Shown one piece after another: positions 5,181 to 20,250 of a stretch of 20,250 nt of DNA. This DNA is from Verrucomicrobiales bacterium. GTDB taxonomy: Bacteria > Verrucomicrobiota > Verrucomicrobiia > Verrucomicrobiales > V1-33. The stretch is from NCBI GenBank assembly GCA_046155625.1, contig JBJXFS010000101.1, positions 1 to 20,250 of the forward strand, read 5' to 3'. A program made the translations under genes and the position numbers. Position 1 is the first letter of the stretch, and each line of letters begins with the position of its first letter. Under the pieces are notes generated by a model that saw only the letters and a list, made by a program, of their open reading frames with translations, did no database searches and was not told the DNA's origin.

Positions 5181-7481
<2,301 letters not shown>

Positions 7482-12147: not shown

Positions 12148-13728
12148 GTGGTGCTAATCCGGTCGCTGATGTCGGATTCACGGCCAACGCGCAAATCGTA
12201 CTCTGAAGCCATGAACGAGTGGGCCTCGCGAGAAGGGCGGGCGTCGTTTTCCCAGCGATCCCGCGTTTCCACGCTGGTTCCGGATCCGTTCGCGCATCCT
12301 ATGGTGAAAGTCCTCGGGTACGTTTGGCGCTTGGGATTGATCGTGCTGGTCGGCATGGCGGCCTATTGGCTGATGTTTCGTTCCCATTTGGGGGGCAAAG
12401 AGTTTGCGGCGCGCATGGCCGAGGCGGCGAGAACGTATCTGGGAGCGCAGAGTGCTCAATTGACTCCCTTGGTCTGGAACGGGGACCAGGCGACCGGGCG
12501 ACAATTCTCAGCCACGGGCGGCCCGGATGCGGCCTACCAGTTGGTGACGGCGGACGACGTTTCGTTTCGTGTTCCATTTACCATGTTTTGGGAGCCGGAG
12601 TGGCGGCTGAGCCGCGTAACGGTCCGGGCCCTGCAGGTTGAGTTCCACTCGGACCTTCGGACGGGGGCCACAGCGGCGGCGGAAAACGACAAGATCGAAG
12701 CGGTGCTCGATTCCTTTTCGCCGCCGGTGCTGACGGCGCCGGGCGACGCGGTGGAACTCGATGTGTCCGCGCCCGATCCGTCGCTGATCCCGGAGCCGAA
12801 AGGGCGTGATGCGCGCGTGCTCGATCTGGATCTGCGGAAGGACGGGCTCGATGTGTCGCCGAGATTCAACAGTGTGCGCATTGCGGGCGTGGATGCCGCG
12901 CGATTTGAAGCCGGCTGGGGAGTCGAGGGAAATGGGCGTGGCGAGTTGCGTCTGGCGTCGCTGCAGGCGCGGCTCGGCGCCGATGGCACGTGGGGCATCG
13001 AGGTGCCATCGGGCGTCCTGTCGCAGAACTGGCTGCGCGGGATCAAAGTGACCCGATTGCTCGCCAGGCTGCGGGGGAGCGAATTGGCGATCGAGAATAC
13101 GGCGGTGCAGTTGGGCGAAGCCGCGGCCGTGCTGAGCGGGAAGATTCGCGGTGGCGGCGCACCGGATTTCGACCTGACGCTGCAAGGGGAGAATTTCGCG
13201 CTGGAGAGTTTCTGCGGCGAACCCTTTGACCGGTTCATCGATCTCAAGGCCAATGGATCCTTGCGTCTCACCGGCTCGCCCAACCTCGCGACCGGCGTGA
13301 CCATCGAGGGCACGATGCAGGTTCTGGAAGGGGCGATTCGCGGACTGGCCATCCAGCAGGCGTTGGCCAGCGCCACCACGAGAATTCGCTTCCGTGAATT
13401 CGGCATCACCGGCGGTACCATCGCGTTCACCACCAGTGGCGGGCGGTTGCAGGTGACTTCCTTCAATCTGGCGTCGCGAATGGATGTCACGGTGCGCGGG
13501 CGGCTCGATTTCGAGCAATCCGCCTTCAAGGGTGAACTCGAAATTGGCGTGGACCCGGCGCTGTTGTTCAAAGTGACCCCCGAGGTGCAGGAGCGGTTTT
13601 TTGGCCGCCAGGAGGATGGCAAACGCTGGATGACAGTGCCGCTTGAGGGCGGCTACGAACAGCTGTCGGCCGACTTGGCCCGCGAGTTCACCGAAGCGCA
13701 TGAGGCCGCCGTCAAGGACGAGCCGTGA
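12148..13728 (+). CDS. Hypothetical large membrane-anchored protein. The start is uncertain and may be the ATG at 12301.
   Basis: 526-aa ORF. A TM helix (VWRLGLIVLVGMAAYWLMF) is followed by a ~450-aa soluble domain with weak AsmA-like character. The ATG at 12301 (MVKVLGY...) would place the TM helix at the N-terminus. The stop overlaps the next gene's GTG start (GTGA at 13725-13728). Confidence 0.5.
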   Translation: MVLIRSLMSDSRPTRKSYSEAMNEWASREGRASFSQRSRVSTLVPDPFAHPMVKVLGYVWRLGLIVLVGMAAYWLMFRSHLGGKEFAARMAEAARTYLGAQSAQLTPLVWNGDQATGRQFSATGGPDAAYQLVTADDVSFRVPFTMFWEPEWRLSRVTVRALQVEFHSDLRTGATAAAENDKIEAVLDSFSPPVLTAPGDAVELDVSAPDPSLIPEPKGRDARVLDLDLRKDGLDVSPRFNSVRIAGVDAARFEAGWGVEGNGRGELRLASLQARLGADGTWGIEVPSGVLSQNWLRGIKVTRLLARLRGSELAIENTAVQLGEAAAVLSGKIRGGGAPDFDLTLQGENFALESFCGEPFDRFIDLKANGSLRLTGSPNLATGVTIEGTMQVLEGAIRGLAIQQALASATTRIRFREFGITGGTIAFTTSGGRLQVTSFNLASRMDVTVRGRLDFEQSAFKGELEIGVDPALLFKVTPEVQERFFGRQEDGKRWMTVPLEGGYEQLSADLAREFTEAHEAAVKDEP

Positions 13729-16493
13729 GGGCGGTCATCGGCTTGCCAAGGGGATGGGCTTGCGCATGGTCTTGCTTCATGCCTCCATCCCCTGGTGTTG
13801 AAACTCGCCTGAATCACCGGCGCGCCGTCCACGTCGGACTTCTGGCCGCAGCCTGTCTTCGATCCATTCCATCGGCGCCCGCCCTCGAGCCGGTGCCGCC
13901 CTCGATGTTTCACCTCTCGGATCCGAACTTGGAGGTTACCATTTGGGCGCAGTCCCCCCAATTCTTAAATCCCACCAACATCGACATCGATGCGCGAGGC
14001 CGGATTTGGGTGGCTGAAGGTGTGAACTACCGCAAACACCTGAATCGAAAGCCGGAGGGCGATCGCATCATGGTGCTTGAGGATACCGATGGCGATGGGA
14101 AGGCCGACAAGTCATGGCCCTTCGTGCAGGATCCCTTCCTCCGCGCGCCCATGGGAGTGGCCGTCATCGGAAACAAAGTGGTGGTTTCCATGGCCCCGGG
14201 TCTCGTCGTGTTCACCGATGCGGACGGGGACGCCGTGTTCGACCTTTCCAAGGGCGACACCCAGGATGTCCTGCTCGTCGGCTTCAATGGCCGCAATCAC
14301 GATCACTCGCTCCACAGCGTGACGGTCGGGCCGGATGGAAAATGGTACTTCTCGGTCGGCAACTGCGGCGCCGTCTTCACCGACAAGGATGGAAAAACCT
14401 GGCGCATTGGGGCGGGCTCCCAGGACGTTTCGTGGTGGCCGAAAGATCCCGCGCATCCCGATCGCGATCCCAAGGATTTTGGCGGGCAGAAAAGCGACGA
14501 CGGGCGGGTCTATGTCGGCGGATTCATCGCGCGCATGAATCCCGACGGCACCGGCGTCGAAATCCTCGCCCACAACCTCCGCAATTCGTACGAGAATTGT
14601 GTCACGTCCTTCGGCGACATCTTCGCCAGCGACAACGACGACCAGCCCGCTTGCCGGACGTTCGCCGTAATCGAGGGCGCCAACTACGGCTTTGCCTCCC
14701 GCGACGGATGGCGGTCGTGGCAGGCTGATCGCCGGCCCGGCCAGAGCCTCATGACGGCCTCGTGGCGCCAGCACGATCCCGGGGTGGCGCCGGCTGGAGA
14801 CATCTACGGCGGTGGCGCGCCGACCGGCATCGTCTTCTACGAAAACGGCGCCCTCGGCCCCCACCATGAGGGCACCTTACTGCTCTGCGAATCCGCCCGC
14901 AATACCATCTTCGGGTACAAACCGGAGCGCCAGGGCGCCGGCTGGAAGCTCGAACGCTTCGATTTTCTCACTACCAACAAAGACGGCAAAGCCAGCGGCA
15001 CTGATTACACCGGCGGCGACCGATCGGCCCGCGCCGAGGACGTGAAAACCCTCTTCCGGCCATCCGACATCGCCGTCGGCCCGGACGGCGCGCTCTACAT
15101 CGCCGATTGGCTCGACCCGCGCATCGGCGGGCACAACGACCTCGATGACTCGCTCGGCGGAACCATCTACCGCGTCGCCCCCAAGGGGTTTCGCGGCGTG
15201 GTGCCGAAACTCGATCTCACGTCGGTCGAGGGAGCCATCAAGGCGTTGAAAAGCCCCGCCGTCCACGTCCGGGCGCTCGGCGCTGCTGCCCTCGGGCCGC
15301 GGGGGAAGCCGGACAACCTTAATGCAAATGGTGTCCGCTGGAGAGACGCCCTCGAGCACCTGCGCTCCGACGATTCCCCAGGCAATCGATTCCCCGCGGC
15401 GCGCGCGTTTCAACTCCAGGATTTGCACGGCATGTGGCATGGGTCAAACCACCCGAGTCAGATCTCGATGCGGAGCCCGCGAACTCCGATCCCAGGGACC
15501 CGGCATACCGTGGAAAACCTAGCCGGGTTTCCGCGATTGCCCACCTACTCGGTCGGCTACACCGATCGCCATGCGTTGGAAGCCTGGGGGCTGGCCTGCG
15601 AAGGCAAGGAGTCAGAGGTGTACGACGCTGTCCTGGCGTCGCTCGGCGATCCCGATCCGCTCAAATGGTCGGTCCAGTTTGCCGCCCTGGCATGGCGGCT
15701 GCATCCGCCCCAAGCGGTCCCCGGTTTCAAGGTCCGAGCCATGGCCAGTGCCCTCCCGGAACGAATGCGCCTGGACGCCTTGACCGCCATCGCCTTTAAC
15801 GACTCCGCCGAAGCCGCCGCCGCCATGCTGGGAATCGCGGTCGCCACCAAGGGCGAGTCTCCCGCGGGAGAGGGAAGCCAGAACCCTTCCGTCACGCCCA
15901 CACCCACGCCCCCCGTCCACGCCACCGCGGTCTGGTGGCTCATCAATAAAAAGGATGCCGCATGGAAAGCGCATGGCGTGGCCGCCGCCCTGAAATCGCA
16001 GGGGCTTTACGATCCCGAGACGCTGGCACTCACCGCCGTCACCCAGCCCGATCCGCCGCCGGCCGGTTTCGCCGTGGAGGATGTGTTGAAGCTCACCGGC
16101 GACACCGTGCGCGGCGCGACCACCAGCCAACGCTGCCTGATGTGCCACCGCATCGGAGAGGCCGGCGTCGATTTCGGGCCCGACATGACAGGGTGGGGAA
16201 AGACCCAGCCGGCCGAAGTCATCGCCCGCGCCCTCATCGACCCGGGCGCCGATATCGCCCATGGCTTCCATGGAACACGGCTGGATACCCGCGATGGCGT
16301 GGTTATCGAAGGCCTGCTCATCAACGATGCCGATCCGGTGATCATCCAGTCGATGGGCGGCCTCACCCAGACCGTGCCGCGTGACCGGATCAAGTCGAAG
16401 GCCCCGCTCCCGCGCAGCCTCATGCTCTCGGCCGCCGCCCTGGGTCTGACCGCCCAGGACGTCGCGGATCTCGTCAGCTTCCTGCGGCTGTGA
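13725..16493 (+). CDS. PVC-type haem-binding CxxCH protein: beta-propeller 'membrane-bound dehydrogenase' domain + HEAT-like repeats + C-terminal mono-haem cytochrome c domain
   Basis: 922-aa ORF. The N-terminal signal-like region is followed by the propeller signature IDIDARGRIWVAEGVNY...DGKADK...GPDGKWYFSVGNCG typical of the Planctomycetes/Verrucomicrobia-specific dehydrogenase-like domain. The C-terminal region has the single CLMCH haem-binding motif (RCLMCHRIGEAGVDFGPDM). The start may instead be the internal ATG at 13779. Confidence 0.8.
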   Translation: MRAVIGLPRGWACAWSCFMPPSPGVETRLNHRRAVHVGLLAAACLRSIPSAPALEPVPPSMFHLSDPNLEVTIWAQSPQFLNPTNIDIDARGRIWVAEGVNYRKHLNRKPEGDRIMVLEDTDGDGKADKSWPFVQDPFLRAPMGVAVIGNKVVVSMAPGLVVFTDADGDAVFDLSKGDTQDVLLVGFNGRNHDHSLHSVTVGPDGKWYFSVGNCGAVFTDKDGKTWRIGAGSQDVSWWPKDPAHPDRDPKDFGGQKSDDGRVYVGGFIARMNPDGTGVEILAHNLRNSYENCVTSFGDIFASDNDDQPACRTFAVIEGANYGFASRDGWRSWQADRRPGQSLMTASWRQHDPGVAPAGDIYGGGAPTGIVFYENGALGPHHEGTLLLCESARNTIFGYKPERQGAGWKLERFDFLTTNKDGKASGTDYTGGDRSARAEDVKTLFRPSDIAVGPDGALYIADWLDPRIGGHNDLDDSLGGTIYRVAPKGFRGVVPKLDLTSVEGAIKALKSPAVHVRALGAAALGPRGKPDNLNANGVRWRDALEHLRSDDSPGNRFPAARAFQLQDLHGMWHGSNHPSQISMRSPRTPIPGTRHTVENLAGFPRLPTYSVGYTDRHALEAWGLACEGKESEVYDAVLASLGDPDPLKWSVQFAALAWRLHPPQAVPGFKVRAMASALPERMRLDALTAIAFNDSAEAAAAMLGIAVATKGESPAGEGSQNPSVTPTPTPPVHATAVWWLINKKDAAWKAHGVAAALKSQGLYDPETLALTAVTQPDPPPAGFAVEDVLKLTGDTVRGATTSQRCLMCHRIGEAGVDFGPDMTGWGKTQPAEVIARALIDPGADIAHGFHGTRLDTRDGVVIEGLLINDADPVIIQSMGGLTQTVPRDRIKSKAPLPRSLMLSAAALGLTAQDVADLVSFLRL

Positions 16494-17569: not shown

Positions 17570-17920
17570 TTAGCTTGTTGCAATTCCCATCGCGACCACC
17601 TGACCATCAGCCCTATTGACCTTAACAACTAGGAATAGCGGCGGCATTTTCTCGATTGTAAAAGCATAAATTACGAAGGTTGCCGGATCGTCTAACGGAC
17701 CAATCAAGGTCTCCCCCAGCTTTGGGGGATAGTCAGTGTAAACGCCGTATGGTGGTCCAAGAATCGCGATAATCTCTTCAATAGTCTTGCAGGGTTGAAC
17801 CTGCGCAAGTGTGCTGCGAACTCGCGATTCTGAATGCAATTTCTTCCACGCAAAAACGGCTAGGCAACCAGCAAAGGCGAATATCACGGTCCATATAAGA
17901 CATTGAAATAGGACTTTCAT
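17570..17920 (-). CDS. Small lipoprotein, putative immunity protein for the adjacent Rhs C-terminal toxin
   Basis: The ATG at 17920-17918 overlaps the TGA stop (17919-17917) of the Rhs gene, giving an ATGA translational-coupling junction. The N-terminus MKVLFQCLIWTVIFAFAGC carries an FAGC lipobox. The gene is AT-rich relative to the window. The six-frame ORF extends to 17941, which would add 7 aa. Confidence 0.5.
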   Translation of the reverse strand: MKVLFQCLIWTVIFAFAGCLAVFAWKKLHSESRVRSTLAQVQPCKTIEEIIAILGPPYGVYTDYPPKLGETLIGPLDDPATFVIYAFTIEKMPPLFLVVKVNRADGQVVAMGIATS

Positions 17921-20250
17921 CGGACTGTACCGCATGGGCATTCTTTATGGTTTTTCGGCCACAGGAGCCAGTGGGGACAGCAATGCTCCTCAACCAGTAG
18001 TTCGTAGCGATCGTTGCACAGCGTGACGCATGATACCCATCGCCCGTGTGCTTTTGCAGCATCAATGCCCGCCTGATTCGCAGCAACATCGGCCGGGTCG
18101 CGGGCAGGATTCCAAGGGAAGTCATTTCCATGTGCTTGTGCGGCCAGTTGGGTCAACCAACCCAACCCAGTCTGGTGTTGAAGAATGCATGAGTTGACGC
18201 AATGTCGCGTCCAACCATCATTGAGACATGCCGGATAGGGGTCATCTATAAACTCTCCAAGACGGCTCGGATCATTATCTGGATGGCGCGGCGGAACAGA
18301 GCTGGTCGGAGTTCCTGTGGGCGGAACTATTACTCCTACGCTAAGACCGAGATAGTCAGATTTATTGACCACTCCGTTCTGTAACATCTCATAGAGATTC
18401 AGCCCCCCTTCTTCCATAATGGGATCTCTATTCAACCACCTCCCATCGATCGGGTCGTAGAACCGGTAACCGTAATAATTGAGCCCTGATTCGCGGTCGG
18501 TGAATTTGGTGCTGAAGTGGAAGGGGAGGTTATCGACCCAGGGGTCGTTGGGGGCGAGGGCTGGGGGCGGGTTGGTGGCGGGTATTTTGGGCCCGGTGGC
18601 GCGGACTTCGCGGCCGAAGGCGTCGTAGTCGAGGTTGGCGGTGAGCTGGCCGGTGGCGGTGGCTGGGGACGGGCCGGCGCCGGCGGTGGTTTTGATTTGG
18701 TAGTAGTGCCGGATGTTGCCCATGTGGTCCATCATAGGGATGTGGACTTCGCCGTTGCCGCTCACTTCCTGGTAGCTGAACATGGCCACCGTCTGCGCAA
18801 TGCCCGTCTGCATCCAGGCCAGCCCCCCGACGCCGCCGGCCGCCTCCCAGGAACCGCGGGCGTACAGGCGACTCCCGATGTCCGGGCGCCAAACGCACGA
18901 CCACTTCCGCGCTGGAGGCGCCTGGTTCGCGGGATCGAGGTTCGAGATCATGACGACGTTCCAGCCGTCGTAAAGGTACCCCTCCATCGTGGCCGTACCA
19001 CCGATGATCGACTTTTTCTGGACCCGGCGGGAAAGGCCGTCGTAGGTGAACTCCAGTGTGACGGCGGGGAAGGTGGCATTGGCGAGGTAGCCCCCGGCGG
19101 GTTGGGTCCACGCGACGCTGACCATTTTCACCAACCGGTTTTCGCCATCCCAGGTGTACGACCAGCGGCCGTCGCTGAGCAGGTTGCCATCGAGGTCGTA
19201 GCGCGGCGGGCTGGCGGTGACGCTGGGCGGGACGAACTGGGTGGGCTCGTCGGTGAGGTCAACTGTTGTGCCGCCGGTTGTCTGGGAGACGGTCACTGGT
19301 TCAAAGATATCGCCGGGAACGGAGGATGGTGTATTGGCGACCTCCTTACGGAAGTAGAGGCCGGTGCCGTTCGGCTGATATCCATTGTTGGGAAGCAAGA
19401 CGGTATTGATGGTGATTTGGGCGTTGGTGCTGCTCCGTTTTCCGCTGACGTCGAACGCCTGCGGCCGGGTGATGGTGTCGTATTGGTTGAGCGAATTGGC
19501 GGTGTAGGTGGTGGAGCGGAGGCCGCTGCCCAGAGTGCTGCCGCCCCCTTCCTGGAGCTGGGTGCGGTTGCCGATGTCGTCGTAGGCGTACACGCTCTGG
19601 CTGCCGGCGAGAACTTCCGTGGCATTGAACCGCCGGTGGGCTCCGGTCACCTGGCCTTTGGTGTCGTAGTCGTAATTCCAAGTGGTATCGCCCTCGCCGC
19701 GGGTGGCGAGGCGGTTGGAATCCCAGGTGAACGGATTGTCGCGGATGGTATAGGTCCACGGGGTTCCACCCAAATAGAGCGTATAGGAAGCGAGGTGGCT
19801 CTGTGGCTGGCCGTAGCTGTTGCGCAGGATGCGGTTGTAAGTGCTGTACGGGCTGTAATAGAGACCGGTGAAGTTCACGGTGAGAGCGTCCTGGCTGGAA
19901 GTACGCGTAATCGTGCCGGTCATGCCGCCGGAAGCGACGGAACTCAGCCGATCCGCCGAGGAATAGGTGTAGGTGATGGCCGGAGAGACTTTGTCGCTGC
20001 CGGTGGTGCTGACGGCGCCGAGTTGAATGCCCCACGACGATTCGAACCGCAAAAGGCGACCGGAAGCATCGTAGGTGCGACGGAGGTGGCGGCCGGCGGC
20101 GGCGGAGGCGTCCTCCGTGAGCGGGCTGCCGTCAAAGCGCCAGGTCATGAGGTTGGTGCCGGTGGCGTCGGTGCGAGTGTTCACGAGGCCGCTGGGATGG
20201 TAGGTGTAGGTCACCGAAGGGGTGTGGAGGGCGTGGCCCGGGGCGAACGA
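17917..20250 (-). CDS. Rhs/YD-repeat polymorphic toxin. The N-terminus lies beyond the window end; the C-terminal ~140 aa are a Cys/His-rich toxin domain of unassigned family.
   Basis: Numerous YD repeats (YTYDxxG..., WNYDYDTKGQVTG, FTYDGLSRRV, ANLDYDAFGREV). The canonical Rhs core terminus YRFYDPIDGRWLNRDPIMEEGGLNLYEMLQNGVVNKSDYLGL ends near 18343. The variable C-terminal domain is 17920..~18342 and contains CLNDGWTRHC, VNSC, SCVTLC, HCCPHW and ECPCG clusters. GC content drops at the core/toxin boundary. The ORF is still open at base 20250. Confidence 0.85.
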   Translation of the reverse strand, partial: SFAPGHALHTPSVTYTYHPSGLVNTRTDATGTNLMTWRFDGSPLTEDASAAAGRHLRRTYDASGRLLRFESSWGIQLGAVSTTGSDKVSPAITYTYSSADRLSSVASGGMTGTITRTSSQDALTVNFTGLYYSPYSTYNRILRNSYGQPQSHLASYTLYLGGTPWTYTIRDNPFTWDSNRLATRGEGDTTWNYDYDTKGQVTGAHRRFNATEVLAGSQSVYAYDDIGNRTQLQEGGGSTLGSGLRSTTYTANSLNQYDTITRPQAFDVSGKRSSTNAQITINTVLLPNNGYQPNGTGLYFRKEVANTPSSVPGDIFEPVTVSQTTGGTTVDLTDEPTQFVPPSVTASPPRYDLDGNLLSDGRWSYTWDGENRLVKMVSVAWTQPAGGYLANATFPAVTLEFTYDGLSRRVQKKSIIGGTATMEGYLYDGWNVVMISNLDPANQAPPARKWSCVWRPDIGSRLYARGSWEAAGGVGGLAWMQTGIAQTVAMFSYQEVSGNGEVHIPMMDHMGNIRHYYQIKTTAGAGPSPATATGQLTANLDYDAFGREVRATGPKIPATNPPPALAPNDPWVDNLPFHFSTKFTDRESGLNYYGYRFYDPIDGRWLNRDPIMEEGGLNLYEMLQNGVVNKSDYLGLSVGVIVPPTGTPTSSVPPRHPDNDPSRLGEFIDDPYPACLNDGWTRHCVNSCILQHQTGLGWLTQLAAQAHGNDFPWNPARDPADVAANQAGIDAAKAHGRWVSCVTLCNDRYELLVEEHCCPHWLLWPKNHKECPCGTVR

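Follow-up and report, generated by a model that had tools for sequence, protein, structure and literature searches.

Classical Rhs/YD cassettes, such as RhsA/RhsI and the cocoons of the Tc-toxin type, combine a YD-repeat shell, closed by a DPxGL-type core end, with a variable C-terminal tip and an adjacent immunity gene. They are found as low-GC exchanged cassettes, and orphan tip/immunity arrays are also part of the picture. The majority of the Rhs tips characterised so far work in the cytoplasm, as nucleases, ADP-ribosyltransferases or deaminases, and are paired with soluble immunity proteins.

A different class of toxin tips was described recently within the Lipocone superfamily, whose enzymes cut lipid head groups and have the fold of Wnt and serum amyloid A proteins (Burroughs, Nicastro & Aravind, eLife 2025, PMC12419801). 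Wnt and serum amyloid A have their bacterial ancestors in its SAA-Wnt (SAW) clade. Min-Wnt (DUF6973, PF22322; Wnt's progenitors in bacteria) and prok-SAA are polymorphic toxin tips, with RHS repeats among their usual delivery domains and with immunity proteins that are all transmembrane proteins or lipoproteins (PMC12419801). The SAW fold is a four-helix cone, H1 to H4, to which a fifth helix is added that packs in between H2 and H4. The Lipocone active-site triad consists of a His in helix 2, a Glu in helix 3 and an Asp in helix 4, with secondary changes in some families; in the SAW clade, helix 3 has an acidic or polar residue at its end or close to it, and sNxxGR surrounds the helix-4 active site (PMC12419801). 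One Lipocone toxin has been characterised, TelC of Streptococcus intermedius, which belongs to the prok-TelC family. It cuts lipid II between undecaprenol and diphosphate; its activity is confined to the outside of the cytoplasm, and TipC, its immunity protein, acts on the extracytoplasmic side (PMC12419801). No experimentally characterised toxin of the SAW clade was found in the literature searched.

In this study, we analysed a stretch of DNA of 20,250 nt from a Verrucomicrobiales bacterium, hereafter named the window. One of its ends carries a locus that shares with classical Rhs/YD cassettes the YD shell, the type of core end, the variable tip, the adjacent immunity gene, the low-GC exchanged cassette and the orphan tip/immunity arrays. 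It differs from most characterised Rhs tips in that a periplasm-acting, lipid-directed enzyme and a membrane-anchored immunity protein are predicted. As a whole, the locus is best explained, in our view with reasonable though not high probability, by an Rhs-borne Lipocone toxin of the SAW clade that would attack extracytoplasmic lipid head groups, together with its membrane-anchored immunity protein.

All genes of the locus lie on the minus strand. The YD/Rhs repeat shell (18343..20250; RHS_repeat PF05593 and TIGR01643 YD repeat) runs on without a stop codon as far as base 20250, so that its ORF is cut by the contig end, which clips the 5' part. The last ~95 aa of the shell form the Rhs-associated core (nt 18343-18627, aa 530-624; TIGR03696 Rhs_assc_core, E 6e-16). 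This match ends exactly on the last Leu of DYLGL, encoded at 18357-18343, which bears out the core boundary that a preliminary description of this DNA had placed near 18343. The boundary is of the DPxGL type, with Tyr at the place of the Pro, and reads DFLGL, DKLGL or DYLGL in relatives. The whole tip beyond it comprises 141 aa (17920-18342) and exactly 9 Cys, as compared to the ~140 aa and at least 9 Cys first reported. Between DYLGL and the toxin domain, the sequence reads as a Pro/Thr-rich linker, SVGVIVPPTGTPTS (18301..18342), outside the conserved family alignment. The Lipocone-like toxin domain itself, of 127 aa, occupies 17920..18300; it is supported by the family alignment, AlphaFold2 (AF2) and hhalign. 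Its TGA stop (17917-17919) overlaps the ATG (17918-17920) of the candidate immunity gene, a 116-aa ORF at 17570..17920, and both this ATGA (17917..17920) and the ORF were found where they had been described. The same 4-nt overlap is present downstream of the toxin family member P0021, and it suggests that the toxin and immunity genes may be translationally coupled. No secretion genes were found elsewhere in the 20,250 nt, a tRNA scan for a possible integration site found none, and promoter and terminator scans, with folding of the intergenic region past the immunity gene, gave nothing above chance.

Pfam, NCBIfam and PDB sequences contained no match to the tip, even at E<=1-10, and nothing significant came up when the 24 family members were each scanned with Pfam. 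The PDB sequences were queried by the single sequence and also by the family profile, and a lone RHC match in a sodium channel was dismissed as chance. The toxin domain is rare. An exhaustive HMMER search among 1.84 billion representatives yielded 37 matches, 4 of which are Cys-repeat false positives; the remaining ~33 related clusters, defined at 50% identity, are all Rhs tips. Conservation was counted over 24 sequences, 29-46% identical to the tip of the window. The columns C25, G29, H33, C34, C38, D60, D71, G78, C91 and C95 are invariant, and R32 and N75 nearly so. That R32, H33, D60, D71, N75 and G78 are kept across members as divergent as these argues for an enzyme. The last ~30 aa of the toxin form a Cys-rich tail (CC...CxC) with four Cys.

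Profile-profile comparisons revealed homology to the SAW clade. With hhalign, the family matched prok-SAA with a probability of 97.2% (E 2.9e-11) and Min-Wnt with 96.4% (E 1e-9), as compared to 98.1% for one reference against the other, and to at most 1.1% for the controls, which were the reversed alignment and 20 column-shuffled versions. In a database of 65 sequences, the family HMM picked up single Rhs tips of the Cys type, from prok-SAA and from Min-Wnt, with E values of 1e-10 to 1e-11. The Min-Wnt Rhs tips MBU1043189.1 (1e-10) and MCA1791646.1 (3e-9), both Cys-containing, were matched, as was NCC62280.1 (2e-10), where the match lies after a 'YGL' motif in a listed fragment that shows no Rhs core. 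The best pairwise BLAST links, at 1e-7 to 1e-5, were to prok-SAA, and at BLAST E<=1e-8 the family forms a cluster of its own. As to curated profiles, PF22322 (DUF6973) did not match the tip of the window at E<=10 and hit 1/24 members at a non-significant E of 0.32, with 30/30 Min-Wnt control sequences matched; PF00277 (SAA) matched 0/24 members and 16/35 prok-SAA controls. In an hhalign alignment to a provisional sequence of human SAA1 alone, only D..AN..G was paired, with a non-significant probability of 0.5%. None of the family motifs that were looked for occurs in the sequence lists of PMC12419801. The profile-profile comparisons place the toxin domain within the Lipocone superfamily, in its SAA-Wnt clade; judged by its profiles, it represents a new branch in a class of toxins described recently, and not a wholly new kind of toxin. 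The family had been presented as unrecognised and possibly novel, which holds insofar as it has its own cluster and no curated HMM match, but the profile-profile comparisons do give it a place.

The alignment assigns the conserved residues to active-site positions of the clade. H33 (R32-H33 codons, 18207-18202) falls on the helix-2 His, D60 (18123-18121) on the acidic residue with which helix 3 ends, and D71 (18090-18088), N75 (18078-18076) and G78 (18069-18067) on the helix-4 D...sNxxG. D60, present in 24/24 members, comes right after helix 47-57 of the model, and its aligned counterparts are the Asp in 'KExxD' of prok-SAA and the Asp in 'HEMD' of Min-Wnt. In the segment A74-N75-x-x-G78-I79, the first residue is small in 21/24 members (17 Ala, 2 Gly, 2 Ser), Asn is found in 20/24 and Gly in 24/24, and the residue following G78 is Ile in 17/24 and Arg in only 2/24. 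The position of the helix-3 Glu is taken by a Gly, Gly58 (18129-18127), in 23 of the 24 members.

Prok-SAA, and in particular its Cys-stapled 'KHCxxSC...D..AN..GI...C...C' members, is the best profile-profile match of the family. Both have a helix-2 His followed by CxxxC, D..(A)N..G in helix 4, and CxxxC in the fifth helix. They differ in that prok-SAA has an invariant Glu in helix 3 ('KE') where the family has Gly, with an invariant Asp two residues on, and in that the family has no helix 1 and carries an extra tail of ~30 aa with four Cys. With Min-Wnt, the family has in common the 'RH' that forms part of (F)RH, an identical D-x3-N-x2-G spacing within helix 4, and membrane-anchored immunity proteins; the Glu of the Min-Wnt 'AHE' is replaced, helix 1 is absent, and Ile rather than Arg follows the helix-4 Gly. 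Because Gly58 has taken the place of the ancestral Glu in helix 3 and the model lacks helix 1, the catalytic pocket may be a different one, or an impaired one. It is conceivable, and we propose it only tentatively, that these tips make up a previously uncatalogued fifth SAA-Wnt family: a helix-1-less, disulfide-stapled 'mini-Lipocone' with a rewired His/Asp/Asp centre and a four-Cys tail, found so far in Verrucomicrobiota only and possibly endowed with another substrate or chemistry than TelC, Min-Wnt and prok-SAA.

A structure prediction of the tip, which the preliminary description had proposed, was run on the domain alone. With the family alignment, AF2 returned a confident, all-helical model (pLDDT 94.4, pTM 0.87); with the single sequence, pLDDT was 36. 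The model has four long helices (30-44, 47-57, 69-85 and 91-106), helix 1 is missing, and a helix that may correspond to the fifth one of the SAW clade is present. A Foldseek search with the model against PDB and BFVD found nothing. A disulfide-stabilised helical protein of this kind might also be a non-enzymatic, saposin-like one, which would bind or permeabilise the target membrane. We consider this quite improbable: at the active-site positions of the superfamily, this divergent family keeps His, two Asp and Gly in every member, and Arg and Asn in nearly every one, which would be unexpected of a pore former, and saposins matched no better than many unrelated helical proteins.

We then turn to the gene downstream. 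NCBI annotates the immunity ORF as a hypothetical protein and starts it at a GTG (105 aa); an ATG at 17941 is another alternative start (123 aa). The protein has a hydrophobic anchor followed by a domain of ~85 aa with the conserved motifs EI..(L/I)G.P...(Y) and (F/Y)L(V/I)VK..(D/N)G. An N-terminal hydrophobic stretch is found in 4/4 immunity homologues, and extends over 23 residues in the protein of the window (~17846-17914); two unrelated partners recovered with DNA also have an N-terminal hydrophobic segment. The ORF had been described as a 116-aa lipoprotein. Its length is as described, but lipoprotein identity is not established, and we did not retain it: the F-A-G-C of the protein is followed by LAVFAW, so that the hydrophobic stretch runs past the Cys where a lipobox ([LVI][ASTVI][GAS]C) with a non-hydrophobic mature N-terminus was looked for, and this Cys is not conserved in the homologues. 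Nor is the lipobox conserved, since locus L001 has no acceptable one, L009 has no N-terminal Cys, and L006 (LLAC) is a loose fit only. 'Membrane-anchored' is a defensible description of the predicted protein. Lipocone toxins may be paired with Imm-BamE proteins, which have a membrane anchor or lipobox, a two-helix hairpin and three beta-strands (PMC12419801). The motif layout seen here (EI..LG.P..., then three hydrophobic strand-like runs) resembles Imm-BamE by eye only, and hhalign against E. coli BamE gave a probability of 0.3%, with a shallow 4-sequence profile set against a single sequence. The immunity profile had no match in PDB or Pfam.

The 9 Cys and several His of the tip, and its odd Cys count, would fit a Zn-binding enzyme acting in the cytoplasm, for example a nuclease or a deaminase, and Zn binding had initially been suggested along with disulfide stabilisation. 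Such an enzyme is extremely unlikely. No HNH, deaminase or other nuclease profile matched the tip, in line with the lack of HNH and deaminase motifs first reported, and hhalign favours membership in the Lipocone superfamily. The HCxxxC...CxxxC pattern is common to secreted prok-SAA and Min-Wnt toxins, which favours the disulfide half of the suggestion and not the Zn half. Finally, the N-terminal hydrophobic segments in the four immunity homologues and in the two unrelated partners speak against a cytoplasmic site of action.

The pair of toxin and immunity genes is met again in other Verrucomicrobiota. In a Verrucomicrobiaceae MAG (L006), the toxin is 67% identical and the immunity protein 43%, for Rhs proteins that are 35% identical overall, tip included. 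In L006, L001/L007 and L009, the toxin homologues have an immunity homologue directly downstream; the toxin and the downstream protein are also kept together in Spartobacteria-type loci and in a JGI contig, and altogether the immunity ORF is co-conserved with the toxin in four lineages. Collection scans found two loci in genomes and one in metagenomes. Word-index homologue searches returned nothing beyond orphan copies that are truncated, the protein of the contig itself and, when the family profile was used, four members, and tblastn of toxin and immunity protein against plasmids gave no match. In the Spartobacteria-type loci, the orphan toxin is a nonsense-mutated pseudogene, and the adjoining immunity ORF is intact. 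It is well supported that the module consists of an Rhs tip toxin with its cognate immunity gene, coupled to it, and that the two are exchanged as a cassette. This is also how it had first been read, and the co-conservation, the identity of 67% for the tip against 35% for the Rhs protein, and the intact immunity gene beside a dead toxin all back that reading. A clearly dead orphan copy, a replaced helix-3 Glu and an absent helix 1 could also describe an inactive relic, a Lipocone decayed by loss of its Glu and kept solely as recombination material. The chances of this are very slim in our opinion, since the replacement, Gly-x-Asp, is a conserved feature in its own right, kept by 23 to 24/24 divergent members, and since the copy of the window is full length, with every invariant residue present, an intact Rhs core and a coupled immunity gene.

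In the mechanism that we propose, the disulfide-rich, all-helical C-terminal toxin of 127 aa, presumably delivered by the Rhs shell, would be freed from it at the DYLGL autoproteolysis motif. In the target cell, it would act outside the cytoplasm, at the inner membrane's periplasmic face, against a phosphate-linked lipid head group, either that of a polyprenyl-phosphate carrier such as lipid II or that of a phospholipid. His33, Asp60, Asp71 and Asn75 are the proposed catalytic residues, and the coupled membrane-anchored protein would neutralise the toxin in the periplasm of the producer, perhaps by direct interaction. Extracytoplasmic action on lipid head groups is suggested by analogy with TelC, a polymorphic toxin tip of the same superfamily and our template here, and by the chemistry predicted for the clade. 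With the same fold and the same module, the toxin might be devoted to phospholipid head groups (phospholipase-D-like, or a transphosphatidylase, as in PTDSS) and not to polyprenyl carriers. The altered active site, with Gly for Glu and an Asp two residues on, could mean a substrate unlike those of the reference families; nevertheless TelC, the only characterised Lipocone toxin, acts on lipid II, and we regard a strictly phospholipid-directed enzyme as unlikely.

If the locus does encode an extracytoplasmic SAW-clade toxin, as we favour, its 127-aa domain, with a confident model, few invariant polar residues and a cognate immunity gene, would be a compact test case for lipid action in the SAA-Wnt clade. 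It adds a verrucomicrobial Rhs example, with an active site that departs from the published consensus, and indicates that curated HMM libraries still miss entire families of the Lipocone superfamily. For annotation, a 'hypothetical' tip and its neighbour become a predicted periplasm-acting toxin/immunity pair.

The base composition of the locus is uneven. GC is 64.3% in the Rhs body and 45.9% at the end of the Rhs core (18343-18490); the tip has 55.1%, the immunity ORF 47.1% and the remaining contig 62.8%. The low-GC cassette extends over 17570..18490 and takes in the immunity gene, the toxin tip and the end of the core. The GC drop reported earlier is real, but it had been placed at the core/toxin junction, and its onset lies ~150 nt before that point.

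The window is one complete contig (20,250 bp) from a MAG listed at NCBI as Verrucomicrobiales bacterium. On its minus strand, the YD/Rhs reading frame shows no stop codon between base 20250, where the contig ends, and the TGA at 17917-17919. The protein contains RHS/YD repeats and the Rhs-associated core, and its TIGR03696 match (E 6e-16) ends on the final Leu of DYLGL, encoded at 18357-18343 (minus strand), i.e. at the core boundary that the preliminary description had placed near 18343. As read from the sequence, DYLGL is followed directly, on the same strand, by 14 aa of Pro/Thr linker and then by the 127-aa toxin domain. Together they form the tip, described earlier as ~140 aa with at least 9 Cys; the count is exactly 9. 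The next gene does start inside the toxin stop: the ATG at 17918-17920 overlaps it (ATGA) and opens a 116-aa ORF ending at 17570 (minus strand), with which a cupin gene is convergent. The Rhs ORF (18343-20250, minus strand) reaches the contig end, and its N-terminal delivery domain is missing.

GC content is 64.3% in the Rhs body and 62.8% in the remaining contig, against 45.9% over the last 150 nt of the core, 55.1% over the tip and 47.1% over the downstream ORF. The drop that had been assigned to the core/toxin junction is real (64.3% to 45.9%) but lies ~150 nt upstream of DYLGL, within the end of the conserved core, where tip-replacing recombination would be expected in an Rhs locus. Third-position GC is 0.54 in the Rhs body vs 0.82 in the neighbouring cupin gene, so that the entire rhs locus, beyond the tip alone, appears compositionally foreign.

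Pfam and NCBIfam scans of the tip gave no match even at E<=1, PDB sequence searches gave none with either the single sequence or the family profile, and no significant Pfam match was found for any of 24 family members. A word-indexed search of 5.8 billion proteins returned only two relatives, both truncated, and an exhaustive HMMER search of 1.84 billion representatives returned 37 matches, four of which are Cys-repeat false positives. The tip domain is rare. It comes after the Rhs core end in the family sequences long enough to show it. In the 24-sequence family alignment (hereafter A2), the remaining members share just 29-46% identity with the window sequence; C25, G29, H33, C34, C38, D60, D71, G78, C91 and C95 (toxin-domain numbering) are invariant, and R32, A54, G58, N75 and C107 nearly so. 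Polar residues fixed across so divergent an alignment would be the pattern expected of an enzyme. With A2 as input, AlphaFold2 yielded a confident predicted model (pLDDT 94.4, pTM 0.87; pLDDT 36 from the single sequence), with four long helices (30-44, 47-57, 69-85 and 91-106), preceded by ~29 residues without long helix and followed by a short, hairpin-like tail.

The SAA-Wnt (SAW) clade of the Lipocone superfamily comprises Min-Wnt, prok-SAA, Met-Wnt and Met-SAA, and is characterized by a helix-2 His, a helix-3 Glu, a helix-4 Asp and an extra acidic position close to where helix 3 ends, as well as by a helix-4 sNxxGR motif and a fifth helix (Burroughs, Nicastro & Aravind, eLife 2025, PMC12419801). 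Reference alignments of prok-SAA (n=35) and Min-Wnt (n=30) were built from the source data of that paper and compared with A2 by hhalign. A2 matched prok-SAA with a probability of 97.2% (E 2.9e-11) and Min-Wnt with 96.4% (E 1e-9), the two reference families matching each other at 98.1% (E 6e-14). Controls, i.e. reversed A2 and 20 column-shuffled versions, were not significant (<=1.1%, scores of 6-14 vs ~60 for the real alignments). A plain A2 HMM run against the 65-sequence set matched single Cys-containing sequences from each of the two families at 1e-10 to 1e-11, among them the Min-Wnt Rhs tips MBU1043189.1 and MCA1791646.1, and pairwise BLAST linked the tip family to the Cys-type prok-SAA group (1e-7 to 1e-5). 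In the profile alignments, H33 falls on the helix-2 His and the Arg before it matches the Min-Wnt 'FRH', while D71, N75 and G78 correspond to the helix-4 D...sNxxG motif, and D60 to the acidic residue at the helix-3 end. The tip's HCxxxC and CxxxC pairs likewise align on the Cys pairs of secreted SAA and Min-Wnt toxins. Together, profile comparisons, HMM and BLAST links and aligned conserved residues make homology to the SAW clade well supported. The family is thus unrecognised, as first described, with respect to curated libraries, but not at the level of profiles.

The tip family nevertheless differs from its relatives. In 23 of 24 members Gly58 stands in for the ancestral helix-3 Glu, and Asp60, two positions further on, is invariant; the residue following the helix-4 Gly is Ile instead of the Arg of sNxxGR; and helix 1 is neither modelled nor aligned. 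All 30 Min-Wnt controls match DUF6973 (PF22322), against a single tip-family member (1/24, at E 0.32), and PF00277 is matched by 16/35 prok-SAA controls and 0/24 tip-family members. BLAST clustering at E<=1e-8 leaves the 24 sequences in a cluster of their own, apart from Min-Wnt and the two prok-SAA sub-clusters. The family's hallmark strings RHCVNSC, RHCVSSC, RHCLSSC, RHCVNTC, RHCVNNC, ANQAGID, GDLPW, NDLPW and GNDFPW are absent throughout the supplementary files of PMC12419801, in which HPDN, SDLPW and DLPF occur only scattered in unrelated sequences. Given these differences in residues, HMM matches, clustering and motif strings, we regard the tip as a variant at the family level that is new but falls within a known clade; in the strict sense it belongs to neither Min-Wnt nor SAA. 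The novelty suggested for the domain is more modest than hoped: instead of a new kind of toxin, it represents a branch, so far uncatalogued and with an altered active site, of a known superfamily. The description of that superfamily is purely computational to date, and the literature searched contained no SAW-clade member characterised by experiment. The family also has a ~30-aa tail with four Cys (CC...C(x)C; 17920-18015, minus strand, in the window), which with five core Cys makes the typical, odd count of nine; three members ending in 'CG' have one tail Cys each, without the last Cys pair.

In three other settings, toxin homologues are directly followed by homologues of the 116-aa protein: a Verrucomicrobiaceae MAG (L006; toxin 67% and immunity protein 43% identical to those of the window), a JGI contig (L009; immunity protein 21% identical) and Spartobacteria-type loci (L001-L005 and L007; immunity protein 40% identical, BLASTP E 6e-22). 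The latter, from Spartobacteria-type genomes and lake metagenomes, carry an orphan copy of the cassette (L001 4167-5383; L007 1634-2676; also L002-L005): in the toxin, 'LTQ' is followed by an in-frame TGA in place of the Leu of the window, and the C-terminus has diverged and has lost its Cys-rich part; the immunity ORF beside it is intact. This is the classic orphan arrangement, and an intact immunity ORF next to a broken toxin in an orphan array speaks for selection of the small protein for its protective role. Contigs from several samples share that in-frame TGA, and the cassette sits among further Rhs-tip fragments in an array bordered by RelB/YafQ and PIN modules. The original finding is real and the module call right. 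Cassette exchange, also proposed earlier, is supported by the Rhs proteins of the window and L006 being only 35% identical overall, even with the 67%-identical tip counted in. More distant family members pair with unrelated small membrane proteins (L008 669-962, L010 616-963), one with two hydrophobic segments, the other with an N-terminal anchor and a different domain, which suggests one toxin family with several immunity types, as expected of polymorphic immunity.

All four immunity homologues begin with a run of hydrophobic residues, 23 long in the window protein, but the lipobox Cys is not conserved among them, so that 'membrane-anchored' is safer than the earlier 'lipoprotein'. Three starts are available, ATG 17941 (123 aa), ATG 17920 (116 aa, ATGA overlap) and the NCBI GTG (105 aa); the last would cut the conserved anchor. 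Min-Wnt and prok-SAA occur as tips of polymorphic toxins, in which RHS repeats are one of the usual packaging domains, and their immunity proteins are all transmembrane or lipoproteins, most commonly membrane-anchored BamE-like (PMC12419801). The ectodomain of the window protein had no Pfam or PDB match, and its shallow profile did not match E. coli BamE (sequence checked against PDB entries).

In sum, the tip is carried by an Rhs protein and released at a DPxGL-type site. Its Cys pattern is of the disulfide type, it is homologous to SAW-clade Lipocones and keeps conserved pocket residues, and its partner is coupled, co-conserved and membrane-anchored. Once delivered, the tip probably attacks a phosphate-linked lipid head group at the periplasmic side of the inner membrane in the target cell. 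By analogy with TelC, a characterised Lipocone toxin acting on lipid II, the simplest substrate would be a polyprenyl carrier such as lipid II; a phospholipid is the rival candidate. The partner would block the tip in the producer's periplasm. Three further readings, namely a saposin-like membrane toxin without catalysis, a Zn enzyme acting in the cytoplasm and an inactive relic, are disfavoured: the invariant polar residues, the shared extracytoplasmic Cys pattern with anchored immunity proteins, and the conservation of the Gly-x-Asp replacement itself speak against them.

Elsewhere on the window, a 766-aa ORF (5181-7481, minus strand) encodes three full Pfam domains with no stop in between: a low-molecular-weight phosphotyrosine phosphatase (aa 5-146), ribose-5-phosphate isomerase B (aa 218-353) and serine hydroxymethyltransferase (aa 363-736). 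Either a genuine fusion or neighbouring genes in the same frame could explain this. Unrelated to the toxin, a 922-aa protein (13725-16493, plus strand) has DUF7133 and a CxxCH motif near its C-terminus; it resembles heme-binding proteins of a type common among PVC bacteria, in keeping with a Verrucomicrobial origin.
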